Both the position numbers and the translations under genes were made by a program. A DNA stretch of 64,000 nt from a virus. Its lineage: Duplodnaviria > Caudoviricetes. Below the pieces are notes generated by a model. The model did not search any database and was not told the origin of the DNA. It saw nothing but the letters and a program-made list of their open reading frames with translations. Position 1 is the stretch's first letter, and each line of letters starts with the position of its first letter. The stretch is from positions 96,001 to 160,000 of the IMG/VR virus record IMGVR_UViG_3300025121_000014; one strand, given 5' to 3'. Shown one piece after another: positions 45,570 through 63,293 of the stretch.

Positions 45570-46538
45570 ATGACACAAACTAAAGCATTTATTGATATTT
45601 ATACAAAAGACTATCCAGTAGGAAAAGTTTTGAAATGTAATATGTGGTTAGAAGGAGAATATACTGATAATATGGTATGTGAATTATTATCTAATGGATT
45701 AAGTGATTATGTGAATGGTATAAAAAAATTCAGAAATAAATATATTGTAGCTGGTTTTAAAGTTAATTTTACTATGTATTTTAAAAATAAAGATGAAAAT
45801 AATAGTTTTAATGAAATTATAATAATGGACGAAAGAGATTATAAACAGAACAATACTATATTATTAAATAATAATCGATTAAATAATAATCGATTAAATA
45901 ACATATCAATTACTAAAGTTGATGGTCGTGTTATAGTTGAAGGATCTGAAAATTCACAAAAAGTAGAACTTACATCCGATTTAAAAATAGCTACTGATGG
46001 TGGTTCGACCATAAATATTAATGATAAAACAACTGAAAAAAAGAAATTTGTAAAAGCTAATTTAAAAAATCTTAGACTATATTTATACAATAATGAAGAA
46101 TTAACCGAATTAAAACATAAATTAGAAATTGAATTTTTTAAAAGAAAATATAAATTAAGTGATGATGAATTTACATATTATTTAGAAAATAGAAATATTA
46201 TAAAACCCGAAAATATTAAAAAATCATTTAAAAGAAATGGTGGAGATGCATTTAAAATTAAAAAAAATAGAATTAGAAAAAAATTATTCCCACTTGATAA
46301 AAATGATAAAATAATTGATACTACTATAAAAAATGATAGTGAAAATATTGTTGAAAAAAAAAGTCCAATAATCCCTGAATTATCTCCTGATGCGATTAAA
46401 ATTGCATCTGAAATTAAACCAAAATCAAGAATTAAAATTATTAAACCTAAAACAACAAAATATAAAAAAATGAATGGAAAAACAACACCAGTATCAAAAA
46501 CAACAATTAATGAACTACCAACTACACTAAAGATGTAG
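45570..46538 (+). CDS. Hypothetical protein, paralog 3; 3' end altered by the IS insertion
   Basis: TKAFIDIYTKDYPVGKVLKCNMW; the empty site restores ..KTTINKTIKIENPLKN*. Confidence 0.6.
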   Translation: MTQTKAFIDIYTKDYPVGKVLKCNMWLEGEYTDNMVCELLSNGLSDYVNGIKKFRNKYIVAGFKVNFTMYFKNKDENNSFNEIIIMDERDYKQNNTILLNNNRLNNNRLNNISITKVDGRVIVEGSENSQKVELTSDLKIATDGGSTININDKTTEKKKFVKANLKNLRLYLYNNEELTELKHKLEIEFFKRKYKLSDDEFTYYLENRNIIKPENIKKSFKRNGGDAFKIKKNRIRKKLFPLDKNDKIIDTTIKNDSENIVEKKSPIIPELSPDAIKIASEIKPKSRIKIIKPKTTKYKKMNGKTTPVSKTTINELPTTLKM

Positions 46539-47969
46539 TGGTTTCTGAATCGAACTGATTCATCTCTTTAAGCACTTCATTGCCGTTGCCTAATTTCTTA
46601 GGTCTTATTTTTGCTCCATGCTCGTAATCAGACGTTCCATCTGATATATTTTTTCTATATCCTTCATTGAGGATATTGATTGCTGCATTTACATCTCTGT
46701 CTTGTTTTTCACCACACTTACAATCCCAAGTTCGGTCTTTTAATGTTAAACCATTATTGATCCACCCGCACTTACTACAAGTCTTACTTGAAGGAAAAAA
46801 TCTATCTATGTGTATGACTTGTTTATCATTCCATTCAGCCTTGTATTCAAGGATATTAATGAAAGTTGACCAAGCAACATCTAAAATTGATTTGTTTAAT
46901 CCTGATTTAGCAGACTGACCATTTGGAAGATATTTACCATTTTCATCTTGTTTTGATTTACACCTATGAGACATACCTTTAACATTTAAGTCTTCAAGGT
47001 AAATCACATCAAATTGTTTTATTAAATCTAAAGCGGTTTTATGTATTAAATCCATTCTTGAATTACTTATCTTTTCATGTATCCTTGCAACTTTAATTCT
47101 TTGCTTTTCATAACGAATTGATTGTTTTACTTTTCTTGATAGAGATTGTTGATTTAATTTTAATTGATGTTGATAGTGTTTTAAAAATCTATGGTTCTTG
47201 ATTTTCGTTCCATTAGATAACACTAAAAAATCTTTTAATCCTAAATCTATTCCTACTGATAATCCACTTTTATTCATTGATATGTATTCCATTTCAGTTA
47301 AAATAGAAACAAAATACTTACCAGTAGGTGTTTTTGATATAACACAGTGTTTTATAACACCATTTATTTTACGTTCCATAATCATTTCAATACCATCTTT
47401 TCTAAACTTTGGTATGTAAAGTTTATTTTTCTTTACAGATACAAATTGTGGTATGGTAAATGAATTTTTTGATTTTCTTGACTTAAATTTTGGAAATTTT
47501 GTCCTCTTTTTAAAAAATCCATCATATGCAGTATCTAAACAATTTAAAGAAAATTGAAGTGTCTGACTATTAATTTCTTTCAACCATTTTTTATCTTCAA
47601 GTTTTTTAATTTGAGTTAATTCTTTTGATTGGTCATAATAATTTAAAGTTTTCTTATTGTTTAAATATTCATTTTTTCTTTGATTTAAAAAATAATTATA
47701 CACAAACCTCACTGAACCAAAATGTTTATTCAATAACACTTGTTGTTGTTCTGTTGGTTCTAATCTAAACTTATATGTATATCTAATTATTTTCATTTTT
47801 TATGTCAAAGTTTTTTCTTAACATAAGTATATATTAAAAGAAAAATGTCTGTTTTTCCATTTTTGAATTATTTATTAAAACTTTTAACTATTTTCAAAAT
47901 AATTAAAACCCGTTTTGGTCAAATTCATCCATTAAACTAAAGATTTAACGGTTTTCTTTGACGGTCAGT
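46510..47969 (-). mobile_element. IS200/IS605-family (tnpB-only, IS1341-like) element T1
   Basis: TTTAT (plus-strand ATAAA 47970-74), left-end hairpin 47918-47969, right end GAAACCACTACATCTTTAGTGTAGTTGGTAGTTCAT. Confidence 0.88.
46522..47796 (-). CDS. tnpB: RNA-guided endonuclease TnpB, apparently intact
   Basis: YTYKFRLEPT HTH, GIDLG, YLEDL, CSKC..CKC zinc finger, DRDVNAAINI. Confidence 0.93.
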   Translation of the reverse strand: MKIIRYTYKFRLEPTEQQQVLLNKHFGSVRFVYNYFLNQRKNEYLNNKKTLNYYDQSKELTQIKKLEDKKWLKEINSQTLQFSLNCLDTAYDGFFKKRTKFPKFKSRKSKNSFTIPQFVSVKKNKLYIPKFRKDGIEMIMERKINGVIKHCVISKTPTGKYFVSILTEMEYISMNKSGLSVGIDLGLKDFLVLSNGTKIKNHRFLKHYQHQLKLNQQSLSRKVKQSIRYEKQRIKVARIHEKISNSRMDLIHKTALDLIKQFDVIYLEDLNVKGMSHRCKSKQDENGKYLPNGQSAKSGLNKSILDVAWSTFINILEYKAEWNDKQVIHIDRFFPSSKTCSKCGWINNGLTLKDRTWDCKCGEKQDRDVNAAINILNEGYRKNISDGTSDYEHGAKIRPKKLGNGNEVLKEMNQFDSETTTSLV

Positions 47970-49203: not shown

Positions 49204-49848
49204 TTAAATATTTTTTTTTATTTTTTTTATTTTTTTTAATCTTTCAAATAAAATATTAGGATTTTCATATAGTTCAAAAACTTCTTTAAGTTGATTTTCA
49301 TCTTTAATATCATATGTATGTTGCCACACAAGACCTTCTAAATGTATATCTGTTTTATCCCTTTCAGTTTGAACTACATCAATATAAAATGATTTAGGTG
49401 TAAATGGAAAATTCCTAATATATTGACGACTTGATAATGTTTTTCCATTTTTTAACTTAATACCACCACCTTGGCTATTAGAACATATACCATTATTATC
49501 TTTAAATATAATAGCATTTATATAATAAGCTTTACCATCTTTACCTTCTTTAAATACAGCACTATTTCTATTATTTTGATATACATGTGTTTTATGTACT
49601 GTATAATTAATATCCCATTCATCATCTTCGCCTGTTAATGGTGACAATGTATTTTGTAAACATAATGTTTTTACTGCTTGGGATATTATAGAAGCCGTAT
49701 AAGGAGTTGAACCACCACTTTGTCCACTATTACCAAACTTATCTATTAATGCTAAAATTTCGTCTTTAAACGGTAAAATAATTGAATCTTGTTCTGTATT
49801 TTCAATAATTTCGAATTCCCTTATTGCTTTATTTTTTGTATAGTTCAT
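49204..49848 (-). CDS. Phage hypothetical protein
   Basis: FGNSGQSGGS, LSPLTGEDDEW motifs. Confidence 0.6.
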   Translation of the reverse strand: MNYTKNKAIREFEIIENTEQDSIILPFKDEILALIDKFGNSGQSGGSTPYTASIISQAVKTLCLQNTLSPLTGEDDEWDINYTVHKTHVYQNNRNSAVFKEGKDGKAYYINAIIFKDNNGICSNSQGGGIKLKNGKTLSSRQYIRNFPFTPKSFYIDVVQTERDKTDIHLEGLVWQHTYDIKDENQLKEVFELYENPNILFERLKKIKKIKKNI

Positions 49849-49886
49849 ATTTTTTTTAAAAACCTTTTTTATTTATATAAAAAATA

Positions 49887-50183
49887 CTATTTTTTGTTTA
49901 AAAATTCTTTTAATATCTTATCAGTATCAGGCAAACTATTATGAATAAAATGAATCAATTCATTTATTTTATCATATTTATAGATATCATCTATATTTAA
50001 TTTTTCTAATAATCGTTCTTCTGGAACAATTTTTATATGTCCTTCTTCATTAAACCAATATGCTATTTCATATGTAGTTTCATCTGCAACCATATTTAAC
50101 AAAATTCCCACACCATTTCCAATTTGCCCTAGATAATCAATTACAGATATACTTAACAATGTTGAATCTATGAATTCTTTCAT
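49887..50183 (-). CDS. Hypothetical protein
   Basis: 98-aa ORF. Confidence 0.55.
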   Translation of the reverse strand: MKEFIDSTLLSISVIDYLGQIGNGVGILLNMVADETTYEIAYWFNEEGHIKIVPEERLLEKLNIDDIYKYDKINELIHFIHNSLPDTDKILKEFLNKK

Positions 50184-50299
50184 TTTTATTTGATTCTTTT
50201 TATTTAATATATATTGAAAATATGATTTTGTCTAATCAAAGAAGAATTGATTTTAAAAGATAAATATATTTTATATATAATAAAAAGATATAGTTATTC

Positions 50300-50671
50300 A
50301 TGCCTAATGCAGATATAAGAGATTACAATATTAGATATGTAGGACATCCTAAATATAACAGTAAAAGAGTTATAGAAGATCGTACTATTGAATTTGTTGT
50401 ACAAAAATTAGAAAATTTATTATTTACAAATAAAGGAGATGATTTAAGCGATCCAGAATTTGGCGCTAATATCGAATATTATTTATGGTCTACAAAAGTG
50501 CCAGTTGAAAAAATTAAAAAAGAAATTGAAAATCAAATAAATAAATATATATCAGAGCTAAATATAATGGGATATTCATTAAATCTCGAATTATATAAAG
50601 GTACTATTAGGGATATACTTTATATTAATATTAATATTAAAGATACTATTGTAAATTTTGTAATAAAATAA
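50300..50671 (+). CDS. gp25/GPW-like baseplate wedge protein
   Basis: LENLLFTNKGD..DPEFGANIEYYLW. Confidence 0.7.
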   Translation: MPNADIRDYNIRYVGHPKYNSKRVIEDRTIEFVVQKLENLLFTNKGDDLSDPEFGANIEYYLWSTKVPVEKIKKEIENQINKYISELNIMGYSLNLELYKGTIRDILYININIKDTIVNFVIK

Positions 50672-50682
50672 TAAAATAAACA

Positions 50683-51207
50683 ATGAAGTTAACAGATAAG
50701 CAAATAAAGGAAACATATATAAATGTATTAACTAGTACAAAAGTTAATGATATAATTAAGAAAAATAGCCAGGGACTTAAACTTGCGCTAAATGAACATA
50801 TATGGTTTGAAAAACAATTTGGTGTGAGAAAAGCAAATCTTAATTTTGCTATGACAACAGGTGAAATAGATGAATATGCCAAATGTAAAATGGATGTTCA
50901 TTACTTTGCAAATAAATATTGCCACATTAAAAGAGAAGACGGTACAATTGGACCAATGCAACTAAGAGATTACCAGAGAGATATTATAGATTTATATGTT
51001 AATAATAGATATTCTATATTAATGACTAGTAGACAATTAGGTAAGTGCAACTCCTTGGTAACCAGATTGTTAGTAAAATTTGACAATGGTGATGAATATG
51101 AAATTACTATGGGAGAATTATATTATACTTACATTCAACAAGAAAGAAAACTAACAATCATAGAAAAAATTAAACTTTTTCTATATAAAGCACTATCTAA
51201 ACTATAA
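50683..51207 (+). CDS. terL: Terminase large subunit N-fragment plus 53-aa N-intein (Cys1 at 51046)
   Basis: LRDYQ adenine motif, SRQLGK then CNSLVTRLLVKFDNG..ITMGELY. Confidence 0.85.
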   Translation: MKLTDKQIKETYINVLTSTKVNDIIKKNSQGLKLALNEHIWFEKQFGVRKANLNFAMTTGEIDEYAKCKMDVHYFANKYCHIKREDGTIGPMQLRDYQRDIIDLYVNNRYSILMTSRQLGKCNSLVTRLLVKFDNGDEYEITMGELYYTYIQQERKLTIIEKIKLFLYKALSKL

Positions 51208-52827
51208 TATTTGATTATAAATATATTTTAAATTACCAGAATTATATATTCTATAAATTTTTCTTTCTAACATAATTTGATGTTCAGTTTTGTTAACATC
51301 ATAACCTTCTTTAATTAATTTATCTTTTCTGAAATTAAATCTATGGTGTCTAATTTGGTCAATAATATAATAATAATTAGGTGATGTTTTATGTATAAAA
51401 TCAAATCCTAAAACTTCATATAATTTTCCATTAGAATGACTTCTATCTGCATATGTAGTTATATTATCAAATTTATAATTTCTAATAAAATACTTAAATA
51501 ATTTACTAGCACATCCTATTACATTTGTATTAAGTTTATTACAAAACCTTAACATTTCATATTGTCCTTCGGTTTTTGAAGATGAATTCATAGATTTTCT
51601 TAATTTTCCAAAAGTCATTAATGAAATTAATTCATTTTCATAAAATAAACCTAATTTAATTTTACTTCCTACAAAACCTTGAATATGATTTTCATCTAGA
51701 AATTTTCTAACTAATTTATTATCAATTATTTCTTTAACTTCTGTTTTTCTAGCGTATATTTTGTTTGGTGTTCTACCTAACTTATTCAATATCATTGATT
51801 TAACTATATCTTGTTTATATACCCAATCATCTTCATATATATGAATTAATTGAATATTTTTTTTATCACATAATTCAGTTTTATCTAAATGATAATTATT
51901 CGGTCTATATAATTCATTATGCCAATAAACACCATTAAATTCAAATGCTAATTTTAAATCAGGGATATAAATATCTAATTCTTTTCCATCTAATATTTTT
52001 CTATCATTTGTTATTATTAAATTATTATAATTTTCTTTTATAAAATCTAATAATTTATTTTCTTTGTCAGAACCAGGATCATTAATAGGATTACATATTG
52101 TACATAATGTAGTATTAGTTTCTAATCTATTATAAAAAATTGTTTTAGGTATTTTACTTATATGATTATTACATTGATATATATAAGTATAATCTTCATA
52201 ATCAATATCAATAATATTGTTATTTTTATATTTTTGGATTAATTTATTTTTTTTATTAATTGTTTTTTTTTCTTGGGTAGATTTTAATTTTGATATATTA
52301 TCAACACCATATAATTTTAAATTAGTTTCTCTATATTTTTCTAAATTATTATAATTTTCATCACCATATTTTTCTTTTTTAGTAACTAACGATTGTTTAT
52401 GATTATTATAATTTTCATCACCATGTTTTTCTTTTTTAGTTTTTTTAATTTTTTCAATATGTTTTGTTGTTTTTGATGGGTGAGTCGTACCATATTTATC
52501 TAAACATGTTTTTATATATTTTTTACTATTTGTATAATTTTCATCACCATATCGTTCTTTTTTAGTTTTTTTCATTTTAATATATTTACATTTATTACAA
52601 TAATATAAGCCATCATCATATGTATTATTAATATATGTTCTATACTCCATATTTTTAATATCTCCACATATATCACATTTAACATCAATTTTAATTGGAC
52701 TGCCTTTAATTAAATCTTTTATATTTATATTTATAGTATCTCCTTTTTTGGCATCATAATTTTTATTTTTATAAAATGTAATATTTCTAGTACTTATATT
52801 CATTTTTACTTGTTCAGTTATAATCAT
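51202..52827 (-). CDS. Hef/Vsr-like free-standing homing endonuclease with KYG repeats and a GNAT-like C-domain
   Basis: ELDIYIPDLKLAFEFNGVYWH, IHIYEDDW, YADRSHSNG; start moved from 52896 (inside the IS end) to MIITEQ. Confidence 0.75.
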   Translation of the reverse strand: MIITEQVKMNISTRNITFYKNKNYDAKKGDTININIKDLIKGSPIKIDVKCDICGDIKNMEYRTYINNTYDDGLYYCNKCKYIKMKKTKKERYGDENYTNSKKYIKTCLDKYGTTHPSKTTKHIEKIKKTKKEKHGDENYNNHKQSLVTKKEKYGDENYNNLEKYRETNLKLYGVDNISKLKSTQEKKTINKKNKLIQKYKNNNIIDIDYEDYTYIYQCNNHISKIPKTIFYNRLETNTTLCTICNPINDPGSDKENKLLDFIKENYNNLIITNDRKILDGKELDIYIPDLKLAFEFNGVYWHNELYRPNNYHLDKTELCDKKNIQLIHIYEDDWVYKQDIVKSMILNKLGRTPNKIYARKTEVKEIIDNKLVRKFLDENHIQGFVGSKIKLGLFYENELISLMTFGKLRKSMNSSSKTEGQYEMLRFCNKLNTNVIGCASKLFKYFIRNYKFDNITTYADRSHSNGKLYEVLGFDFIHKTSPNYYYIIDQIRHHRFNFRKDKLIKEGYDVNKTEHQIMLERKIYRIYNSGNLKYIYNQIL

Positions 52828-52884
52828 ATTATTAGTTTTTATTTTATATATAAAAAGGTCAAAGTGTAAAATATCATTATTTAT

Positions 52885-53736
52885 ATGACCCGTCAAAGAA
52901 AATCGTTAAATCTTTAGTTTAAAGGATGAATTTGACATACCAAAATTAAAATTTACTGATATAGATTTACACAGAGAATTTAAAGGTGATATAAAAACTA
53001 TAACTATTTCAAAAACAACAACAAATAAATATTATATAAGTATTTTAGTCGATAACAAAAAAGAATTGCCTGAAAAACAACCAATTAAATTAGAAACAAC
53101 CGTTGGTGTCGATTTGGGAATTAAAGATTTTGTTATCACTTCAGATGGAAAGAAATTCAAGAACCAAGATTTCTTTAAATCTGCTTTAAAGAAACTAAGA
53201 GTTGAACAGCGTTCCCTTAGTAGAAAACAAAAAGGATCAAACCATTATTTAAATCAAAAATTAAAGGTTTCATTATTTCACGAACACATTAAAAACCAAA
53301 GAGAAGATTACTTACATAAAATAACTAAATACCTTGTAGATAATTATGATACAATTTGTATAGAAAATCTTGGTGTTTCTAATATGATGAAAAACAATAA
53401 GTTAAGTCGTGCTATAAGTGATATGGGTTGGTTTAAATTTAAATCATTTCTTGAATATAAATGTGAATGGTATGGAAAGAATTTAAGTGTGATTGGTAGA
53501 TTTGATCCTTCATCAAAAACATGTTCTGTTTGTGGAAAAATAAATAAAGAATTAACATTAAAAGACAGAAACTGGAAATGTAATTACTGTGGAACAGAAC
53601 ATGATAGAGATATAAATGCTGCAATTAATATAAGAAATTTTGGGTTGAGGAACCAACCTAGCGTTACACAAAGTGAATGGTTGCATTGTGCTTGTAGCGT
53701 AGAAACACACAAATCTTCAGTTTGTGCGTAGTTCAT
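52885..53736 (+). mobile_element. IS200/IS605-type element T2 with 5'-deleted tnpB (852 bp)
   Basis: TTTAT 52880-84, left-end hairpin, right end GAAACACACAAATCTTCAGTTTGTGCGTAGTTCAT. Confidence 0.88.
52937..53731 (+). pseudogene. tnpB: N-terminally truncated TnpB
   Basis: Frame IPKLKF..KYYISILV..GVDLG..IENL..CSVC..CNYC..DRDINAAINI begins right after the left end, with no HTH. Confidence 0.85.
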
Positions 53737-53776
53737 ATATTTTTAATTTGAATTAGTTTATTTAATATATAATGTT

Positions 53777-56026
53777 ATGATTAAATTATTTATAAAACAG
53801 ATAATATATTTAATAATAGAATTATTAGAAAAAATGGAATATAAAAATAATTCATTTGATGAAAATAATCCATTAAAAAAAATTATTAATACTATTCCTA
53901 TTGATAATGTTTCTATTGAAACCGATTATGGGTTTGTTCCTATAACTGAAATGAATTTAACTGCGCCATTATCATTATATAGATTAGAATTAGATAATGG
54001 AGATTGGTTAGAATGTGCAGATGATCATATAGTATTCACAGAAGGACATCAACAAAAATTTGTTAAAAATTTAACAACAGATGATAAAGTATTATGTAGA
54101 GAAAATTATATTGAAGGTATAAAAGTTAAATCAGTTAAAAATCTTAAAAGAAAAGTTAGTTTAATGGATATTACAGTAGATACTAATGAAAAAAGTTATT
54201 TTGCTAATAATATCTTAAATCATAATACAGTTTCAGCCGCAATTGTAATATTGCATTTTTGTTTATTTAAAGAAAATAAAGGTGTTATGGTTGTAGCAAA
54301 TAAAGGAAAAACAACAATAGAAATTATAGAAAAAATAAAAAGTATTTATAAATTATTACCATTCTTTTTAAAAGCGGGTATTATTAATTGGAATCAATCA
54401 AGTATTACTTTTGACAATGGTTGCCAAATTAAAACGGAAAAAAGAACTAAGGAACCTGCAATCGGTTTTACAATAGATCTCCTTTATCTTGATGAATTTG
54501 CTCATATACCTGAGAATTATATTGTACCGTATTATACTGCGGTTGTACCAGTTGTATCTAGTATTGAAAATTCAAAAATTATTATCACATCTACGCCAAA
54601 AGGATTAAACTTATTTCATAAATTATTAATAGAATCTGAATTACCAGAAGATGATCCTAATTGGAATGGTTATCGTTCTTTAAGAGTATACTGGTGGCAG
54701 GTAAAACATAGTAGAGATACAAAAATATTCTTTAACGAAAAGAAATTAAGAAAATATAAATTAAATAAAACTGAATTAAAACAATTCTTAATTGAAAATA
54801 AATATAACATTTATGAAAAAAACGAAAATAATTTAAATGGTATATTTATAAATTATGAACCAAATGAAGAAAGTACTCAGATTGATTATATAAGAAACTT
54901 AAGATATAACGAATTACCTTTATCTGAATTAGGTATGATTACTAATTGGGAGGAACAACAAACTAAATTGATTGGCGGAGAAGATGGTTTTAAACAAGAA
55001 TATGATCTTCATTTCTTAACAGGTAATAAAATGTTATTTGATAGTGTTCTTCTAGAAAAAATGATGGAAGACAAATTACCATTTGAATATTATAGTATTC
55101 CTATATTTAATGAAAAATTAAAAATACCTTATAATAATTTAACATTTGTTAAAGGACAACCAGAATTATTTGATATGAAAAAAGTAAAAGATTATCATAT
55201 TTTTATATCAATTGATTTAGGTGAAGGATTAGGTCAAGATTATAGTGTTATTAATATATTTAGAGTAATGCCAAAAACATCAGAAGAATTAAATTATTTT
55301 AAAAAACGAATTGATGGATTGTATGATTATTTTAAACTTGAGCAAATCGGTATGTTTAAATCAAATATTTATTCAGTTAAAGAAGTATCATTAATATTAT
55401 ATATGATTACTTTCGAATTATTTAATGATAATAAAGTAAGAATAGCACTTGAAAGAAATGTATATGGTGATGAACTTATTGCTCATATGCCACATGTTTT
55501 TGACGATAACAATAATTATTCTAGTCACGTATTTTTAAGATATAAACATAATTTAGAACAAAAAACATCTAGAATGGGAATAAAAGTTAATAGGAATAAA
55601 TTATCATTAATAAAAGATTATCAAATACAAACGAAAAAGGGAAATATTGTTATTCGTCATTTAAATACTATTACCGAATTAAGTACATTTACTAAAAAAG
55701 AAACTCCTAGTGGTGGAATTACATATCAAGGAGAAAGTGGTCACGATGACCAGGCAATGACGGTTATTGTTTTAGCAACAATATTTAATCATGTAGGATG
55801 GAAAAATTGTATTGAAGAATTTATGAAAGAAAATAAAGATAATAGAAATCTAATACATAATGATTTTAACAAAATTGTTGATGAATATCAAGCAGATATT
55901 GGTGATATTAAAACGTTTCAAATTTCATATAAAAAGATTTATAATAAAAATTACAATCCTAAAAATCAAAAACAAGTTGGATATGGTGGTAAAATAGCAC
56001 CTCCCATTTTTCCAACAAGAAGATAA
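53777..56026 (+). CDS. terL: 150-aa C-intein plus terminase large subunit C-fragment (Thr+1 at 54227)
   Basis: ECADDH block B, YFANNILNHN|TVSAA; LYLDEFAHI, ITSTPKG, SIDLGEG, GHDD. Confidence 0.88.
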   Translation: MIKLFIKQIIYLIIELLEKMEYKNNSFDENNPLKKIINTIPIDNVSIETDYGFVPITEMNLTAPLSLYRLELDNGDWLECADDHIVFTEGHQQKFVKNLTTDDKVLCRENYIEGIKVKSVKNLKRKVSLMDITVDTNEKSYFANNILNHNTVSAAIVILHFCLFKENKGVMVVANKGKTTIEIIEKIKSIYKLLPFFLKAGIINWNQSSITFDNGCQIKTEKRTKEPAIGFTIDLLYLDEFAHIPENYIVPYYTAVVPVVSSIENSKIIITSTPKGLNLFHKLLIESELPEDDPNWNGYRSLRVYWWQVKHSRDTKIFFNEKKLRKYKLNKTELKQFLIENKYNIYEKNENNLNGIFINYEPNEESTQIDYIRNLRYNELPLSELGMITNWEEQQTKLIGGEDGFKQEYDLHFLTGNKMLFDSVLLEKMMEDKLPFEYYSIPIFNEKLKIPYNNLTFVKGQPELFDMKKVKDYHIFISIDLGEGLGQDYSVINIFRVMPKTSEELNYFKKRIDGLYDYFKLEQIGMFKSNIYSVKEVSLILYMITFELFNDNKVRIALERNVYGDELIAHMPHVFDDNNNYSSHVFLRYKHNLEQKTSRMGIKVNRNKLSLIKDYQIQTKKGNIVIRHLNTITELSTFTKKETPSGGITYQGESGHDDQAMTVIVLATIFNHVGWKNCIEEFMKENKDNRNLIHNDFNKIVDEYQADIGDIKTFQISYKKIYNKNYNPKNQKQVGYGGKIAPPIFPTRR

Positions 56027-56104
56027 TGTAGTTCATTAAACAAAAAATATCTATTTTTTCATTTTTGAAAAACTTATAATTATTTTCGAAATATAAGGTA
56101 TAAT

Positions 56105-56156
56105 TGAAATAAATCCACCTAAATTAAAGATTTACTGGTTTTCTTTCAAAAAATTT
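56105..56156 (-). mobile_element. Degenerate IS left-end remnant
   Basis: TTTAT|AAATTTTT-TGAAAGAAAACCAGTAAATCTTTAATTTAGGTGG; adjacent 56045-56070 resembles the T1 leader. Confidence 0.5.
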
Positions 56157-56175
56157 ATAAATAAATTTAAAAAAA

Positions 56176-56958
56176 ATGGGAGAAATTAAATATAAAATTA
56201 CAAGTGATAATTTAACAAAAATAATAGATACAGTCAGAGATTTAAGCGTAATAGATAAAAAAGGTGTTATACGATTTAATAAAAAATATGTACTTATTTA
56301 TTCCTTAATAGGAGAAGGTGATGTTATAAATGTGTTTAAAAGTTTTGTATTTAAAACAGAAGAACTTTTTACAAATATAGATGAATTTGATGAAACAATA
56401 AATTTTGTCGTAAAGGATATGAAGAATCTTTATAGAACACTTAAAATAATGGCAGATTTAGGTGATAATGTAGACGGAAAAATATTTTTTGATGAAATAG
56501 GTAAACTATTTTTTTCAGATCGTTTATATTTTAAATCTACTAATAAATTAAAATTGAATTTTTATGGTAATGATCCTACTAAAACAAATACAAGAATAAC
56601 ATTAGATCAAATTAAAAAAATTGCTAATGTAGATAATTCGTCTTTTAATTTTAATTTAAAAAGTGAAGATTTTGTCAATATTAAAAAATTAGCATTACCA
56701 GATGATGAAATGGATATTTTTTATATGAATACATTTGAAAAAGATGGTGATTATTTTGTATCTATTGGGGAAACTAATTGGAACTTAACATTAGATCAAA
56801 TAGATCTAAAAGAAGAAAGAACACTAGCATTTCCAAAAAAGTATTTTAAAACTATTAATATAGATAAAGAAAATGTAAAAGTATATGTATTTGATACGTT
56901 TTTATTAGTATCTTCTGATAATTCTAATTTAATCATATCAATAGAAATAACTGTTTAA
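56176..56958 (+). CDS. Possible DNA polymerase sliding clamp (gp45-like)
   Basis: Size and two-part beta-rich pattern, in a replication/packaging context; no diagnostic motif. Confidence 0.35.
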   Translation: MGEIKYKITSDNLTKIIDTVRDLSVIDKKGVIRFNKKYVLIYSLIGEGDVINVFKSFVFKTEELFTNIDEFDETINFVVKDMKNLYRTLKIMADLGDNVDGKIFFDEIGKLFFSDRLYFKSTNKLKLNFYGNDPTKTNTRITLDQIKKIANVDNSSFNFNLKSEDFVNIKKLALPDDEMDIFYMNTFEKDGDYFVSIGETNWNLTLDQIDLKEERTLAFPKKYFKTINIDKENVKVYVFDTFLLVSSDNSNLIISIEITV

Positions 56959-57104
56959 CCATTAATATGAATATTCAAAAAAGTGGATATTAGTAGACGA
57001 ATATAATAACAATATAGAATTTAATAGTTTGTGTATAGTTCATCTAACAATGATTTTATATTAAAAGAACGATTTAAAAAAATTAAAAAAATACAAAATA
57101 AAAT

Positions 57105-58062
57105 ATGAATAGAAAACTAAATGTATTTTCCGCATTTGATGGAATAGGAACTGGATACCAAGTCTTAAAAGAATTAGGTTATGATTGCAATTATTATGCA
57201 TCAGAAATAGAACCAAATTCTATTGCCATTGCTATGAAAAATCATCCTGATATAATACAATTAGGCGATATAGAAGAAATTACAAAAGAAAGTTTTAATC
57301 ATGATATAGATTTAGTTATTGGTGGAAGTCCTTGCCAAGATTTATCAACTCTAATGCGAGAAGGCGAAGGTTTAAAAGGTAGTAAATCAAGATTATTTTT
57401 TAAATATTATGAATTATTACAAAAATTAAAACCTAAATATTTCCTATTAGAAAATGTTAAAATGAAAAAGGAATATGAAGAACAAATTACAAATTTATTA
57501 GGTATTCAACCATTGAATATAAATTCTAATTTGGTTTCGGCACAAAATAGAAATAGATTATATTGGACCAATATTCCAGTTGCATCTATTCCGGAAGATA
57601 AAGGAATTTTATTAAAAGATATTATAGAAGATGGTTATGTGAATAGATATAAATCAAATTGTATAACTGAAAGCACATGTAGAGCTTGTAATACTCCATC
57701 TGGTTTTCGAAGATATATTGCAAAAAAATATGGCACAATTTGTATTTAAAGATAAAGACGAATATCAAAAAATAGTCGGTATAACTGATGAAGATAGGAT
57801 TAAATATTCTAAATGGATATGGAAACAAAAAGCATCTGATTTAGTAGATGGTATTGATACACCACGAATTAGGAAAATGACTCCTAATGAAGTAGAAGCA
57901 TTACAAACTATGCCCAAAGATTATACTTATATAGAAAAATTATATTTAAATTCAAAAGGAATATATAATCAAAATAGTGGTGATTATATTAGAATATCAG
58001 TATTAGGAAATGGATGGACTAAAGATGTAATTAAACACCTTATGAAAAATATGAAATTTTAA
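57105..58062 (+). pseudogene. dcm: C5-cytosine DNA methyltransferase split by a +1 frameshift at an A7 run (57722-57728)
   Basis: FDGIG, GGSPCQ, LLENV, QNRNRLYW in 57105-57749; RKMTPNEVEALQ..LGNGW in 57718-58062. Confidence 0.85.
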
Positions 58063-59659: not shown

Positions 59660-61276
59660 TTATTTTAAATTCTTTAAATATTTAAATTTTAAATTACCAG
59701 AATTATAAATTCTATAAATTTTTCTTTCTAACATAATTTGATGTTCTGATTTATTAGCATCATAACCTTCTTTAATTAAAACATCTTTTCTAAATCCAAA
59801 CCTGTGATATCTAATACCATCAACGACATAATAATAATTTGGTTTAGATGTATGTGAATATATGAATCCTAAATATTCATATAATTTTCCAGTTGAATGG
59901 CTTCTATCTGCATACGTAGTTATTTCTTTAAATTCATAATTTCTTATAAAATATTTAAATAATTTTGAAGCACCACCTATTACATTAGTATTTAATTTAT
60001 TACAAAATCTTAACATTTCGAACTGCTTTTCTTTTGAAACTGAATTCATCATTTTTCTTAATCCACCAAAAGTCATTAAACTAACTAATTCATCTTTATA
60101 AAATAATCCTATTTTAATAGATGATCCCATAAATCCTTGAATATGATTTTCAGCCAAAAAGTTTCTGACTAATTTATTATCTGTTATTTCTTTTACTTCT
60201 GTTTTTCTTGCATATATTTTATTTGATGTTTTACCTAACTTATTTAAAATCATTGATTTAACTATATCTTGTTTATAAATCCAATCATCTTCATAAATGT
60301 GTATTAATTGAATTTTTTTTTCATCACATAAATCAGATTTTATTTTATGATAATCGTTTGATTTATATAATTCATTATGCCAATAAACTCCATTAAATTC
60401 AAATGCTAATTTTAAATCAGGTAAATAAATATCTAATTCATAAGGATTTATTATATTCCTATCATTTGTAATAATTTCTTCTTTATAGTTTTCTTTTATA
60501 AAATCTGATATTTTTATTTCAGAATCAGATTTAAAATTGAAACCTATTGAATTACACTTAGTACATAACGTAGAATTTAAAATTAATCGATTTTTTAATA
60601 ATCCTTTATTTATTTTAAAAATTTGGTTACAATTATTACATTTAATAAAATAATCCGGATTATTATAATTTATAACTATAATATTATATTTATCTTTATA
60701 GTATTTGATGGAATTTTTATTTTTAATATTTTGTATTTTTTTATATAATTCTTGTTGTATTTCTTTAGATTTTAATCTATATTCAACTCCATATTTTTCT
60801 AAATTTGTTATTTTAATTTTATCCCATACTTCTTCTGTTTCTAAACCATATTTCTTTCCGTATTTACTTAAATTAGTATTTTGAAGTTTTTTAATTATTG
60901 TATTTGAATGCATAGGGTGATCAACACCATATTTTTTTAATAATGTATTTTTAGATTTTTCTTTTATTTTATCTAATTGAAAAATATTTTCAACATTATA
61001 TTTATCATTTAATCTTCTAATACATTTATCATTAGAACATTTTTTAGAGCAACAATATTCTTCTGTTAAATTATTAGTATTTTTGATATATTGGAAATAT
61101 TTTAATTTTTTTTCTAATCCACATATATCACATTTTACTTTAATTTCAACATGACTATTTTTTGATAAATCTGTTGGTTTTACCAATGAATATTTTAATA
61201 AAACATCATACCCTAATTGTTCATAATGTTTTTTTAATTTTCTATTATTAATTTTTACTTCTTTTGTAATAATCAT
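59660..61276 (-). CDS. Second Hef/Vsr-like homing endonuclease
   Basis: ELDIYLPDLKLAFEFNGVYWH; C-terminal half highly similar to 51202-52827. Confidence 0.75.
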   Translation of the reverse strand: MIITKEVKINNRKLKKHYEQLGYDVLLKYSLVKPTDLSKNSHVEIKVKCDICGLEKKLKYFQYIKNTNNLTEEYCCSKKCSNDKCIRRLNDKYNVENIFQLDKIKEKSKNTLLKKYGVDHPMHSNTIIKKLQNTNLSKYGKKYGLETEEVWDKIKITNLEKYGVEYRLKSKEIQQELYKKIQNIKNKNSIKYYKDKYNIIVINYNNPDYFIKCNNCNQIFKINKGLLKNRLILNSTLCTKCNSIGFNFKSDSEIKISDFIKENYKEEIITNDRNIINPYELDIYLPDLKLAFEFNGVYWHNELYKSNDYHKIKSDLCDEKKIQLIHIYEDDWIYKQDIVKSMILNKLGKTSNKIYARKTEVKEITDNKLVRNFLAENHIQGFMGSSIKIGLFYKDELVSLMTFGGLRKMMNSVSKEKQFEMLRFCNKLNTNVIGGASKLFKYFIRNYEFKEITTYADRSHSTGKLYEYLGFIYSHTSKPNYYYVVDGIRYHRFGFRKDVLIKEGYDANKSEHQIMLERKIYRIYNSGNLKFKYLKNLK

Positions 61277-61280
61277 AATA

Positions 61281-62213
61281 TTATATTTTTATTTTAAATT
61301 CTGTTAATGGAAATTCTTGTGGTTTATAAATTTTTTCTCTTCTTGATATATATTGATTATATATAATATTTTTATAAGATGGATGATATTGATCAACTAT
61401 ATCAAACACAACTAACTTTTCTTTATCTGCATGTAATCTTAATCCACGACCAATTGATTGTCTAATTATTTGATCTGATTTAAAACTGTCAGCAAAAACA
61501 ACATTCATTAAATTTTTAACATTTATACCTGTTGAAAATGTTCCAAATGACGCAATTAATATTTTTGGTTTATTATCCGATATCTCCATTATTTTTTTAA
61601 TTTTTTCTCTTTTATCTTTATTAGTACCACCGTCAATATAATAAAAGAATTTATCTGTAATATTATCTCTAAGATATTCATATAATTCTGTACCATATAT
61701 TATATTATGAAATAATATTAATGAATTGCTTGTAAACTTATCTACTAATTTTTTGAAGAACATTTTCCTTCTTAATGATTTTTGAGCAAATTCTTTTTCT
61801 AATAAATATGCTTCTTTTCCTTGACCTCTTTTTTTAATAGCATACATTTTTTGTGAGAAATCTTCTTCATCATGATTTAATATCATAGCATTAATTTTTA
61901 CCTTAGATACTAGACCTTTATCCATTAATTCTTTAGCTTTAACAGTCATTAATTTAGGTCCCATTAAAGATTGAATAGTAAGAATTTCGGCTGAACTATT
62001 CGGTGGATATGTTCCAGATAACCCCAATCTATAAATAGCATTACCAAATGTTTTAGATAGTATTGTATCTAAACTTTTTGCTTTTGCTACGTGGCAATTA
62101 CTAACACATATTCCATTAGCAAAATAATTATTATTTATATCATTTCCTTCTTTTATTCTTATATTATAAACGTCACCAGTATAATCTATTTTTTTAATTG
62201 ATTTAATTTTCAT
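61281..62213 (-). CDS. uvsW: 39-aa C-intein plus UvsW-like SF2 helicase C-fragment
   Basis: MKIKSIKKI..VYNI..NYFANGICVSN|CH; LGLSGT, QSIGRGLR. Confidence 0.85.
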   Translation of the reverse strand: MKIKSIKKIDYTGDVYNIRIKEGNDINNNYFANGICVSNCHVAKAKSLDTILSKTFGNAIYRLGLSGTYPPNSSAEILTIQSLMGPKLMTVKAKELMDKGLVSKVKINAMILNHDEEDFSQKMYAIKKRGQGKEAYLLEKEFAQKSLRRKMFFKKLVDKFTSNSLILFHNIIYGTELYEYLRDNITDKFFYYIDGGTNKDKREKIKKIMEISDNKPKILIASFGTFSTGINVKNLMNVVFADSFKSDQIIRQSIGRGLRLHADKEKLVVFDIVDQYHPSYKNIIYNQYISRREKIYKPQEFPLTEFKIKI

Positions 62214-62237: not shown

Positions 62238-63293
62238 TTACATATTAAAATCTATAATATCATCATTTTCTAATAAATTGTCTACTCTTTTCCATATACC
62301 ATTTTTTAATAAAACTTTATGATTTCCTGTAATATAGATAAATTCACCATTTTCTAATTCTAATTCATACATATTTTCAAATTTAGATAAGTTTTTGTAA
62401 ACATAATCAACCTGTTTTATTTCTTTTTCTTTTGTTAATTCATTAAATGTCCATACTTCATCTCCTATATTAATATTTTTTATCATTTCTTTATTACCAG
62501 ATCCCATTTCTATTAAAGTATTAGGGTGTAAACATTCATCTGTGACAACAATATCAAATTTTTTGAAATAATTGATATCATATTTATCCGATGATAAACT
62601 TTGATAAGTTCCAATATAAATATTAGGTTCTTCACCATCTCTTACTTTTCTTGGCTTATCAGAAAATACTTCTTCTATTTTCAAATTAAATGGATTTGTT
62701 TGTTCTTTATTAAATCCTAAATTATAATCTAATATTTCATCGTAAAATTGAGTTACTAAACTCATTCTAGGTACAATTAATAGAACTTTAATATCAGGAT
62801 TGATAAACTTCATTATGTAAAATATAAACGTTGAAAATATAAGAGATTTTCCACCAGCAGTTGCTACTTCAATTAAACCAAATTTATATTTCAACATTTG
62901 AAATACAGCATCTATTTGATGTTCATAAGGCATAAATAATCCTAATGGATTATCTTTAGTTGGAGGAACTCTATAATTTTTAAAAAATTCTTCAACAAAT
63001 TCTTTAACATCTTCTAATTTGATATTTAAATCAAATGGAAATGATGTCTTATCGACATCAAATTTATAATCATGATTCCGACAACATTTATATACTTCTT
63101 TCCAAAGACCGTATCTTATAATACCATTATGAAAATGATCAATAGAACCATCCCAAACTCCTAATTTATGTCGTTTTTTAAAATGATATCCTTCTACTTT
63201 TCTAGTAAGATGTAATTTTAATTGATGATATTCTTCATGAGTAGATTCTTTAATTATTATCTTATTTTTGTCGTCTGTTATTACTAATTTCAT
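62238..63293 (-). CDS. uvsW: UvsW-like SF2 helicase N-fragment plus 98-aa N-intein (Cys1 at 62534)
   Basis: YEHQ, ATAGGKS Walker A, VVTDE|CLHPNT..ITGNHKV. Confidence 0.85.
   Translation of the reverse strand: MKLVITDDKNKIIIKESTHEEYHQLKLHLTRKVEGYHFKKRHKLGVWDGSIDHFHNGIIRYGLWKEVYKCCRNHDYKFDVDKTSFPFDLNIKLEDVKEFVEEFFKNYRVPPTKDNPLGLFMPYEHQIDAVFQMLKYKFGLIEVATAGGKSLIFSTFIFYIMKFINPDIKVLLIVPRMSLVTQFYDEILDYNLGFNKEQTNPFNLKIEEVFSDKPRKVRDGEEPNIYIGTYQSLSSDKYDINYFKKFDIVVTDECLHPNTLIEMGSGNKEMIKNINIGDEVWTFNELTKEKEIKQVDYVYKNLSKFENMYELELENGEFIYITGNHKVLLKNGIWKRVDNLLENDDIIDFNM

Follow-up and report, generated by a model that had tools for sequence, protein, structure and literature searches.

How can a phage make its DNA-packaging motor when the gene for the large terminase subunit (TerL) is broken inside the Walker A motif? 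The question is raised by a stretch of 64,000 nucleotides (positions 96,001 to 160,000 of IMG/VR record IMGVR_UViG_3300025121_000014, here called the window) from a huge, Mahaphage-like phage from groundwater. Two open reading frames (ORFs) on its plus strand, 2,569 bp apart, each encode a part of TerL together with a part of an intein. Sequence comparison and structural modeling lead us to propose that two separately made chains are most probably joined into one TerL by an atypically split class 1 intein. Each half also carries an additional helix at the split site, and these two helices may assist the encounter of the chains.

A terminase gene divided within the Walker A motif

The upstream ORF (50683-51207, plus strand, 174 aa) starts 11 nt after the stop of a gp25-like gene. 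It reads as TerL as far as ..LMTSRQLGK, continues as an intein (CNSLV..MGELY..) and ends with ..YKALSKL. The downstream ORF (53777-56026, plus strand, 749 aa) opens with further intein sequence, including ..LECADDHIVF.. and ..SYFANNILNHN, before TerL resumes at TVSAA. Both halves matched TerL families: phrog_5989 was found in the N-half (1.1e-19) as well as in the C-half (1.7e-21), Pfam Terminase_6N matched residues 153-285 of the C-half (1.5e-11), and TerL matches of phrog_2 and phrog_24361 reached C-half residue 689. In addition, phrog_36964, an intein-bearing TerL family of 890 positions, was matched by the N-half at profile positions 19-131 and by the C-half at positions 397-558. NCBIfam gave no matches for either half or for the endonuclease encoded between them. 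The Walker B motif LLYLDE and the nuclease motif GHDD are legible in the C-extein. All motifs of a T4-type large terminase are present, yet Walker A is divided between two ORFs, and the motifs come to lie in one chain only given splicing.

Joining of K121 to T151 is predicted to yield a protein of 720 aa (121 + 599) in which the GK|T Walker A loop is rebuilt. Because the intein-free huge-phage relative LR756504 reads SRQSGKTVSAA without interruption, the intein boundaries could be fixed to the residue. An earlier note on this DNA, made from its letters alone, had described a TerL gene fractured at Walker A, whose splicing would restore GK|T and a protein of ~720 aa with Walker B and nuclease motifs; both ORFs, the family matches on each half, the joined length and the motifs bore this out.

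An intein with a short N-terminal and a long C-terminal piece

The fold of the intein was examined with AlphaFold2 (AF2). For the first 165 residues of the C-half, a model built from a 32-sequence alignment (predicted local distance difference test [pLDDT] score, 80.7) showed a helix, a linker and a beta-rich domain. Within the C-terminal intein piece (IntC), the head helix spans residues 2-21 and the linker residues 22-39; the Hedgehog/intein (HINT) core follows with blocks B (A81-D-D-H84), F (D131) and G (H149-N150). The model of the N-terminal piece (IntN) comprises strands 128-132 and 138-142 and helices 143-154 and 159-173. A Foldseek search of IntC against the PDB gave 55 matches at E up to 0.001, and all of the 50 listed top matches were inteins or bacterial intein-like (BIL) domains, among them the consensus intein Cat (6dsl_B; TM score 0.74 by target) and VidaL (root mean square deviation 1.4 over 105 columns). 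Profile comparison matched IntC to gp41-1 (3e-7) and to CatC (1.4e-4); the CatC match began only at profile position 39 and left out the head helix and linker. Fold and profiles agreed with the intein identity proposed earlier.

Since the C-half aligned from residue 20-23 of gp41-1 and from residue 11 of CatC, IntN would contribute no more than the two initial strands and the initial helix, with block B (ADDH) residing in IntC. By this alignment the split falls between intein blocks A and B, which is the atypical layout of short IntN and long IntC, as the earlier note had claimed.

A conserved helix pair at the split site

Both halves are extended at the split. The extra tail of the N-half (residues ~155-174, window positions 51145-51204) contains the second of the IntN helices, modeled with a pLDDT of ~94, and the head helix predicted by AF2 in the C-half corresponds to window positions 53780-53839. 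In the tail K164 and L167 are invariant, and at least 90% of sequences retain R155, L157, E161 and Y168; in the head helix I10, I14 and E18 are invariant. The most conserved positions recur every 3-4 residues (L157, E161, K164, L167 and Y168 in the tail; I10, I14, L17, E18 and E21 in the head). Mean column identity was 0.70 and 0.69 for the two helices, 0.70 for the TerL N-extein and 0.49 for the IntN strands. Both helices were found in 7 of 7 paired loci. Two split alleles of the same family, L010 (TerL) and L011 (SbcC-like), lack them, and their halves are 0.2 kb and 8 nt apart; among the loci examined, the helix-bearing split halves were separated by 0.9 to >12 kb, and those of the helix-less L010 and L011 were adjacent.

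Association of the halves was modeled by co-folding N-half residues 95-174 with C-half residues 1-175 in three runs, accompanied by three controls. The score was 0.81 in all three runs versus 0.00 for the best control, a value that may in part reflect recall of solved split inteins and that measures likeness, not activity. Of 78 solved complexes 51 attained that mark, as did 2 of 108 mismatched pairs. In the predicted complex, N-half residues 158-174 contact C-half residues 3-21 with i, i+3/4 spacing, and the interface on the N-half also takes in residues 119-134. The co-folding check suggested in the earlier note hence favored association of the two fragments.

The occurrence of the helices was then followed through the intein family. 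A profile of the 150-residue C-piece, run against 1.84 billion representatives, retrieved 1,410 proteins at E up to 0.001, the best 150 of which were re-scored locally. Among these 150, 52 were split with the head helix and 73 split without it, and 12 were contiguous with the head helix and 13 contiguous without it. All head-helix split members of at least 300 aa in this set matched the TerL C-extein, and at least 10 helix-less split members of at least 300 aa had no TerL match. Where a contiguous form bears the helices, a turn of a few residues links tail to head; two of these forms were verified as single ORFs under genetic code table 11, with no endonuclease nearby. Because contiguous relatives carry both helices joined by this short turn, the pair is an insertion peculiar to this intein lineage, a helix-turn-helix, and it is within its turn that the split gene is cut. 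Of the earlier claim that helical extensions are unusual at this locus, the prediction of a helix on both halves stood, and their restriction to the split form did not.

A tree of 57 helix-bearing inteins, in which 4 of 62 branches were well supported, interleaved contiguous and split forms. It required 10 state changes compared with a mean of 10.3 after shuffling, so that contiguous forms were scattered no less than in shuffled data. The supported branches force at least two state changes and give no direction (fission or re-fusion).

Their occurrence in contiguous alleles means that the helices did not evolve for the split form, and they may be no more than passive leftovers. In that case the intein would splice in trans, and the helices would be what remains of the helix-turn-helix of a contiguous ancestor, without a role in association. 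Such an origin is consistent with the 12 contiguous inteins with both helices among the best 150 relatives, the two verified ones included, and with the existence of helix-less split relatives (L010 and L011), a layout known to work in AceL, GOS and Cat (PMC11766414). We nevertheless regard leftovers without function as the less probable outcome: the helices are conserved like the extein and at heptad-spaced positions, the co-fold puts exactly these faces in contact, and the helix-less genes are adjacent while the helix-bearing ones are dispersed. The evidence leans slightly, at roughly even odds against passive leftovers, toward a helix pair that acts as an association handle between the halves. 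More tentatively, the pair might be a natural affinity zipper, a helix-turn-helix that became a pairing device once the gene was cut, working even where more than 12 kb separates the genes and the genome is as large as 735 kb. A further role might be to impose an order on the assembly of the atypically split intein, whose N-extein must be threaded.

Proposed splicing in trans

The nucleophiles of a class 1 intein are in place, with Cys at intein position 1 and Thr at position +1. G120, K121 and C122 were invariant in 22 N-half homologues; T151, H84 and D131 were invariant in 32 C-halves, and N150 was kept in at least 90%. For the window locus we infer both trans-splicing and separate transcription of the halves. 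In the mechanism that we propose, the N-half would probably be co-transcribed with the upstream gp25-like gene, and the C-half would be made separately. The chains would meet with the help of the helix pair, predicted to pack side by side along a heptad-spaced hydrophobic seam, and IntN would complete the HINT fold. Cys122 would make the thioester, Thr151 would attack it and Asn150 would cyclise; release of the intein pieces would leave the 720-aa TerL with an intact P-loop. The GK|T loop of Walker A would exist only after this joining.

Besides the caveats attached above to the co-fold score and to the helices of contiguous alleles, several observations weigh against this scheme. The Thr of block B is replaced by Ala in every member of the family. 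The penultimate His is Leu in many relatives, LR756501 among them, and the IntC of LR756500 ends with SSQ, which puts Ser in the place of the penultimate His and Gln in that of the terminal Asn. None of the RNA runs searched for the stretch contained it. Finally, a second, intact TerL elsewhere in the genome of the window phage is excluded only by analogy with LR756501 and LR756500, as described below. Inteins with such non-consensus residues in blocks B and G are known to splice.

The replacement of the block B Thr throughout and the loss of the penultimate His in some relatives, combined with the strong predicted binding, would also suit a TerL that works as a two-chain enzyme, the intein pieces serving as a non-covalent dimerisation module and no splicing taking place. 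We consider this improbable. C1, the block B His, the block F Asp, the terminal Asn and Thr+1 are invariant or nearly so in more than 30 diverged members, and a clamp would not need them; moreover, ~200 residues inserted between the Lys and the Thr of the P-loop would most likely block nucleotide binding.

The same split in relatives

Counted as clusters at 90% identity, the same split was present in at least 41 N-half clusters, with representatives of 167-180 aa, and in at least 44 C-half clusters, all of which begin at the same Met. The closest named records are those of the huge uncultured phages LR756500-LR756504 and LR745206. In LR756501 (735 kb) the halves lie 12.4 kb apart, and ~18 ORFs of at least 90 aa occur between them on both strands, several of them overlapping. 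Because of this distance and the genes on both strands, separate transcription of the halves is very likely in LR756501. The gap of LR756500 contains a Vsr-like endonuclease, and those of other contigs contain endonucleases of the DUF559/MTES type (L006, L007 and L008), the GIY-YIG type (L004) or the phrog_3339 type (L009); upstream of the L009 C-half, no N-half was found within 10 kb. Since the same split recurs across relatives with different genes in the gap, the split itself appears old and fixed and the content of the gap turns over.

No other TerL was found in the window. The sole other Terminase_6N match in LR756501 (E up to 0.01) was a 390-aa ORF (L012:1057-2229) in which the Walker A Lys is changed to Ile (SRQMGIT). 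Just downstream of the split locus, LR756500 has a 270-aa TerL-like ORF (L002:333-1145) with the same change (SRQMGIS). The length of these two paralogues suggests that they have no nuclease domain, and they may be ATPase-dead relatives of terminase. As the other TerL-like ORFs are short and have Ile for the Walker A Lys, the fractured gene is the only competent TerL found in LR756501 and LR756500.

The two selfish elements within the gap could point to a decaying terminase that was broken by mobile elements, packaging being left to another TerL elsewhere. This is very improbable: both halves are intact ORFs, purifying selection across dozens of relatives is clear, the only other TerL-like genes seen when LR756501 and LR756500 were searched over their whole records (one from the family search, one read next to the locus) are without the Walker A Lys and too short for a nuclease domain, and the rest of the 64-kb window offers no substitute.

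An assembly artefact, which the metagenomic origin and the repeated tnpB and endonuclease copies nearby might suggest, or an intron removed at the RNA level is more improbable still, given overlapping contigs of separate runs that span each junction without differences, the recurrence of the split in independent assemblies, and in-frame intein motifs that flank the break in a region free of any Rfam match. The contigs, taken from Logan for three groundwater runs of two studies, jointly tile positions 51028-54400 (pieces 51028-51817, 51934-52933, 52908-53163, 53137-53656 and 53648-54400), and the spanning pieces agree throughout; two reported "joints" in them consist of 20-21 letters on one side, within repeated endonuclease or tnpB sequence. 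Misassembly, for which a contiguous intein in the raw data was to be the sign, was rejected on these grounds. RNA splicing of the interruption was likewise rejected, since an Rfam scan of positions 49500-57000 at E up to 1 returned no family, hence no group I or II intron.

Selfish DNA between the halves

The features of the locus are collected in Table 1. The antisense endonuclease and the insertion sequence placed in the gap by the earlier note were both recovered, the latter as a decayed tnpB remnant.

Table 1. Parts of the split terminase gene and elements in its gap (window positions)
Feature	Position	Strand	Evidence
TerL N-extein, residues 1-121, ending in Walker A ..SRQLGK	50683..51045	+	ORF reading; phrog_5989 1.1e-19, residues 21-122
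Intein N-piece (IntN), 53 aa, C122-L174	51046..51204	+	Stop codon 51205-51207
Antisense homing endonuclease (putative), free-standing, 564-aa ORF	51202..52896	-	phrog_3339 1.9e-115
tnpB remnant (IS200/IS605-type), internally deleted	52880..53736	+	OrfB_IS605 8.8e-27; Cas12f TNB 2.4e-24
Intein C-piece (IntC), 150 aa	53777..54226	+	AF2 model, Foldseek, profile matches
TerL C-extein, 599 aa, from Walker A T151 to end	54227..56026	+	Walker B (LLYLDE), nuclease domain; Terminase_6N

The endonuclease likely starts at the ATG at 52827, which gives a protein of 541 aa, because its relatives and its paralogue in the window align only from residue 20-24. It consists of N-terminal DUF7487 repeats (a weak match), a Vsr-like nuclease core and a Mom-like C-terminal domain, for which Pfam Mom scored 27.4 bits against a cutoff of 27.1. 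Its motif LDIYIPDLKLAFEFNGVYWH aligned with the DUF559/MTES_1575 endonuclease of L008 (8e-5); a Pfam search with the core alone gave no matches. By these features the gap ORF is a predicted Vsr-like homing endonuclease of the type described by Dassa et al. in 2009. The same combination of DUF7487-type repeats, Vsr-like core and Mom-like C-terminal domain is found in the paralogue at 59660-61276 (minus strand); a Mom partner is unusual for a homing endonuclease.

Within the tnpB remnant, an ORF of 221 aa (53066-53731) keeps the RuvC and Zn-ribbon parts. It covers profile positions 177-369 of the 403 positions of phrog_506 and falls short of a full-length TnpB (~400 aa). The left end of the remnant is 93% identical over 58 bp to an intact copy at 46522-47796, and a deletion has removed ~0.5 kb from the 5' portion of tnpB. 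The remnant ends at TAGTTCAT, 40 nt before the ATG of the C-half. The intact element (minus strand) encodes a protein of 424 aa, 45% identical to that of the gap remnant. The gap is a landing pad for selfish DNA.

The promoter motif that the earlier note assigned to the C-half at 53762 was neither shown nor excluded. A scan for sigma-70 promoters was uninformative at 23% GC, with 74 sites versus 63 expected. A copy of ATATATAAT at 53765 ends 3 nt before the C-half ATG, compared with 18-28 nt before the start of ten other plus-strand ORFs, several of them large (611 to 1,297 aa). Plus-strand copies of ATATATAAT, e.g., at 2785, 8807, 17236, 25190, 42175 and 50273, make it a candidate phage promoter element.

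Comparison with known split inteins

Fractured genes were described by Dassa, London, Stoddard, Schueler-Furman and Pietrokovski in 2009 (PMC2677866), mostly in phages and including a phage terminase locus; a Vsr-like endonuclease family occurred in about half of the loci. The window locus is similar in that two ORFs each carry an intein piece beside an extein and that the gene of a putative free-standing homing endonuclease separates them. A Vsr-like core is likewise present in its gap gene, and in relatives the gap is occupied by DUF559/MTES_1575 or GIY-YIG genes. Unlike in the loci of 2009, however, the split is atypical (between blocks A and B), each piece bears a conserved helix, and an antisense endonuclease is accompanied by a tnpB remnant. 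Moreover, whereas those genes are neighboring ORFs, the halves of LR756501 and L009 are >10 kb apart with unrelated genes between. A text search of the 2009 paper (PMC2677866) found no mention of extensions or coiled coils.

With AceL-TerL, GOS-TerL and Cat, whose IntN/IntC pieces measure 25/104, 37/115 and 30/104 aa (PMC11766414), the window intein shares a TerL host, a short IntN, a long IntC containing block B and class 1 chemistry. Its pieces are of 53 and 150 aa, in contrast, and its Thr+1 lies inside Walker A, unlike their Cys+1 (PMC11766414), so the insertion site differs. The likeness to these inteins drawn in the earlier note therefore applied to the split layout and not to the allele, and the IntC profile was no nearer to Cat than to gp41-1. 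The window intein has its true alleles among the P-loop TerL inteins, for example that of Salmonella phage Maynard (Kuttervirus; annotated Cys110-Asn268), which is inserted in Walker A as ..RQSGK|C....SHN|T.. and has similar blocks A, B, F and G. Unlike the window intein, which comprises 203 aa in two genes, the Maynard intein is one contiguous piece of 159 aa in one gene, with a 26-residue linker at the split position that shows none of the conserved helix motifs.

The intein family (6.7e-17; 39-40% identity to the window IntC), the GK|T P-loop site and the split position are all shared by L010, a T4-like TerL, and L011, an SbcC/gp46-like ATPase. They differ from the window intein in their IntN of 38-40 aa (40 in L010, 38 in L011), an IntC of ~121 aa, the missing long helices, the short intergenic distances (0.2 kb or 8 nt) and the lack of an endonuclease in between. 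At L011:4236-6444 the helix-less intein splits the SbcC/gp46-like ATPase at its P-loop (..GSGK|C.., ..SHN|T..); since this ATPase is split by the same family, the intein family has moved between P-loop proteins.

Split inteins have been engineered with added dimerisation domains, e.g., FKBP/FRB on Sce VMA (PMC11766414). Fusion to coiled coils or dimerisation domains gives fragments that associate only weakly a higher effective affinity through a pairing module placed at the split, and the idea would be the same here; unlike the man-made fusions, the helix pair occurs in nature, is conserved and belongs to the intein lineage itself. In the literature searched, the coverage of which is incomplete, we found no natural split intein with such pairing helices and no work on split-intein terminases in huge phages; the Jug-phage paper concerns group I introns in terL, a different mechanism. 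Already known are the fractured terminase with a free-standing endonuclease (2009; PMC2677866) and the atypical split (AceL-TerL, GOS-TerL and Cat). New, as far as this literature goes, are a split site flanked by two conserved helices, the occurrence of this pair in contiguous as well as split alleles, and a TerL whose dispersed split form is fixed throughout a clade of huge phages.

In these huge phages, the 735-kb LR756501 among them, an essential packaging motor encoded in a single copy appears to come into being only through trans-splicing, from genes that can be >12 kb apart, which would extend the idea of the fractured gene from neighboring ORFs to dispersed genes. Contiguous members, split ones with neighboring genes, and split ones with a conserved helix pair all occur in one intein lineage, which provides a natural series on how split inteins arise and are stabilized. 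Dozens of diverged orthologues of a natural intein with its own pairing helices and Cys1/Thr+1 chemistry are also a testable source of new, possibly orthogonal parts. If true, the helix zipper would give the coiled-coil handles fitted to engineered split inteins their first natural counterpart, along with a ready-made part for such work.

Other features of the window and of relatives

A second split intein, of canonical layout, was noticed in a UvsW-like helicase of the window. Its N-half (62238-63293, minus strand) reads ..VVTDE followed by a 98-aa IntN that begins CLHPNT; 24 nt on, the C-half (61281-62213, minus strand) has a 39-aa IntC ending ..CVSN, followed by CH. This pair has no helical extensions. 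Directly downstream of it lies the endonuclease paralogue at 59660-61276, which is 58% identical to the gap endonuclease.

One relative of the C-half, P0070 (1101 aa), is interrupted once more, at the nuclease motif, by a contiguous intein that has a LAGLIDADG domain (..GHDD followed by C.., and ending ..VVHN followed by C).

Downstream of the split terminase, a cytosine-5 DNA methyltransferase (57105-58062, plus strand) is encoded as two overlapping ORFs in different frames, which could be a frameshift or a broken gene. The first (57105-57749) has the FxGxG, PCQ and ENV motifs, and the second (57718-58062) has the GNG motif.

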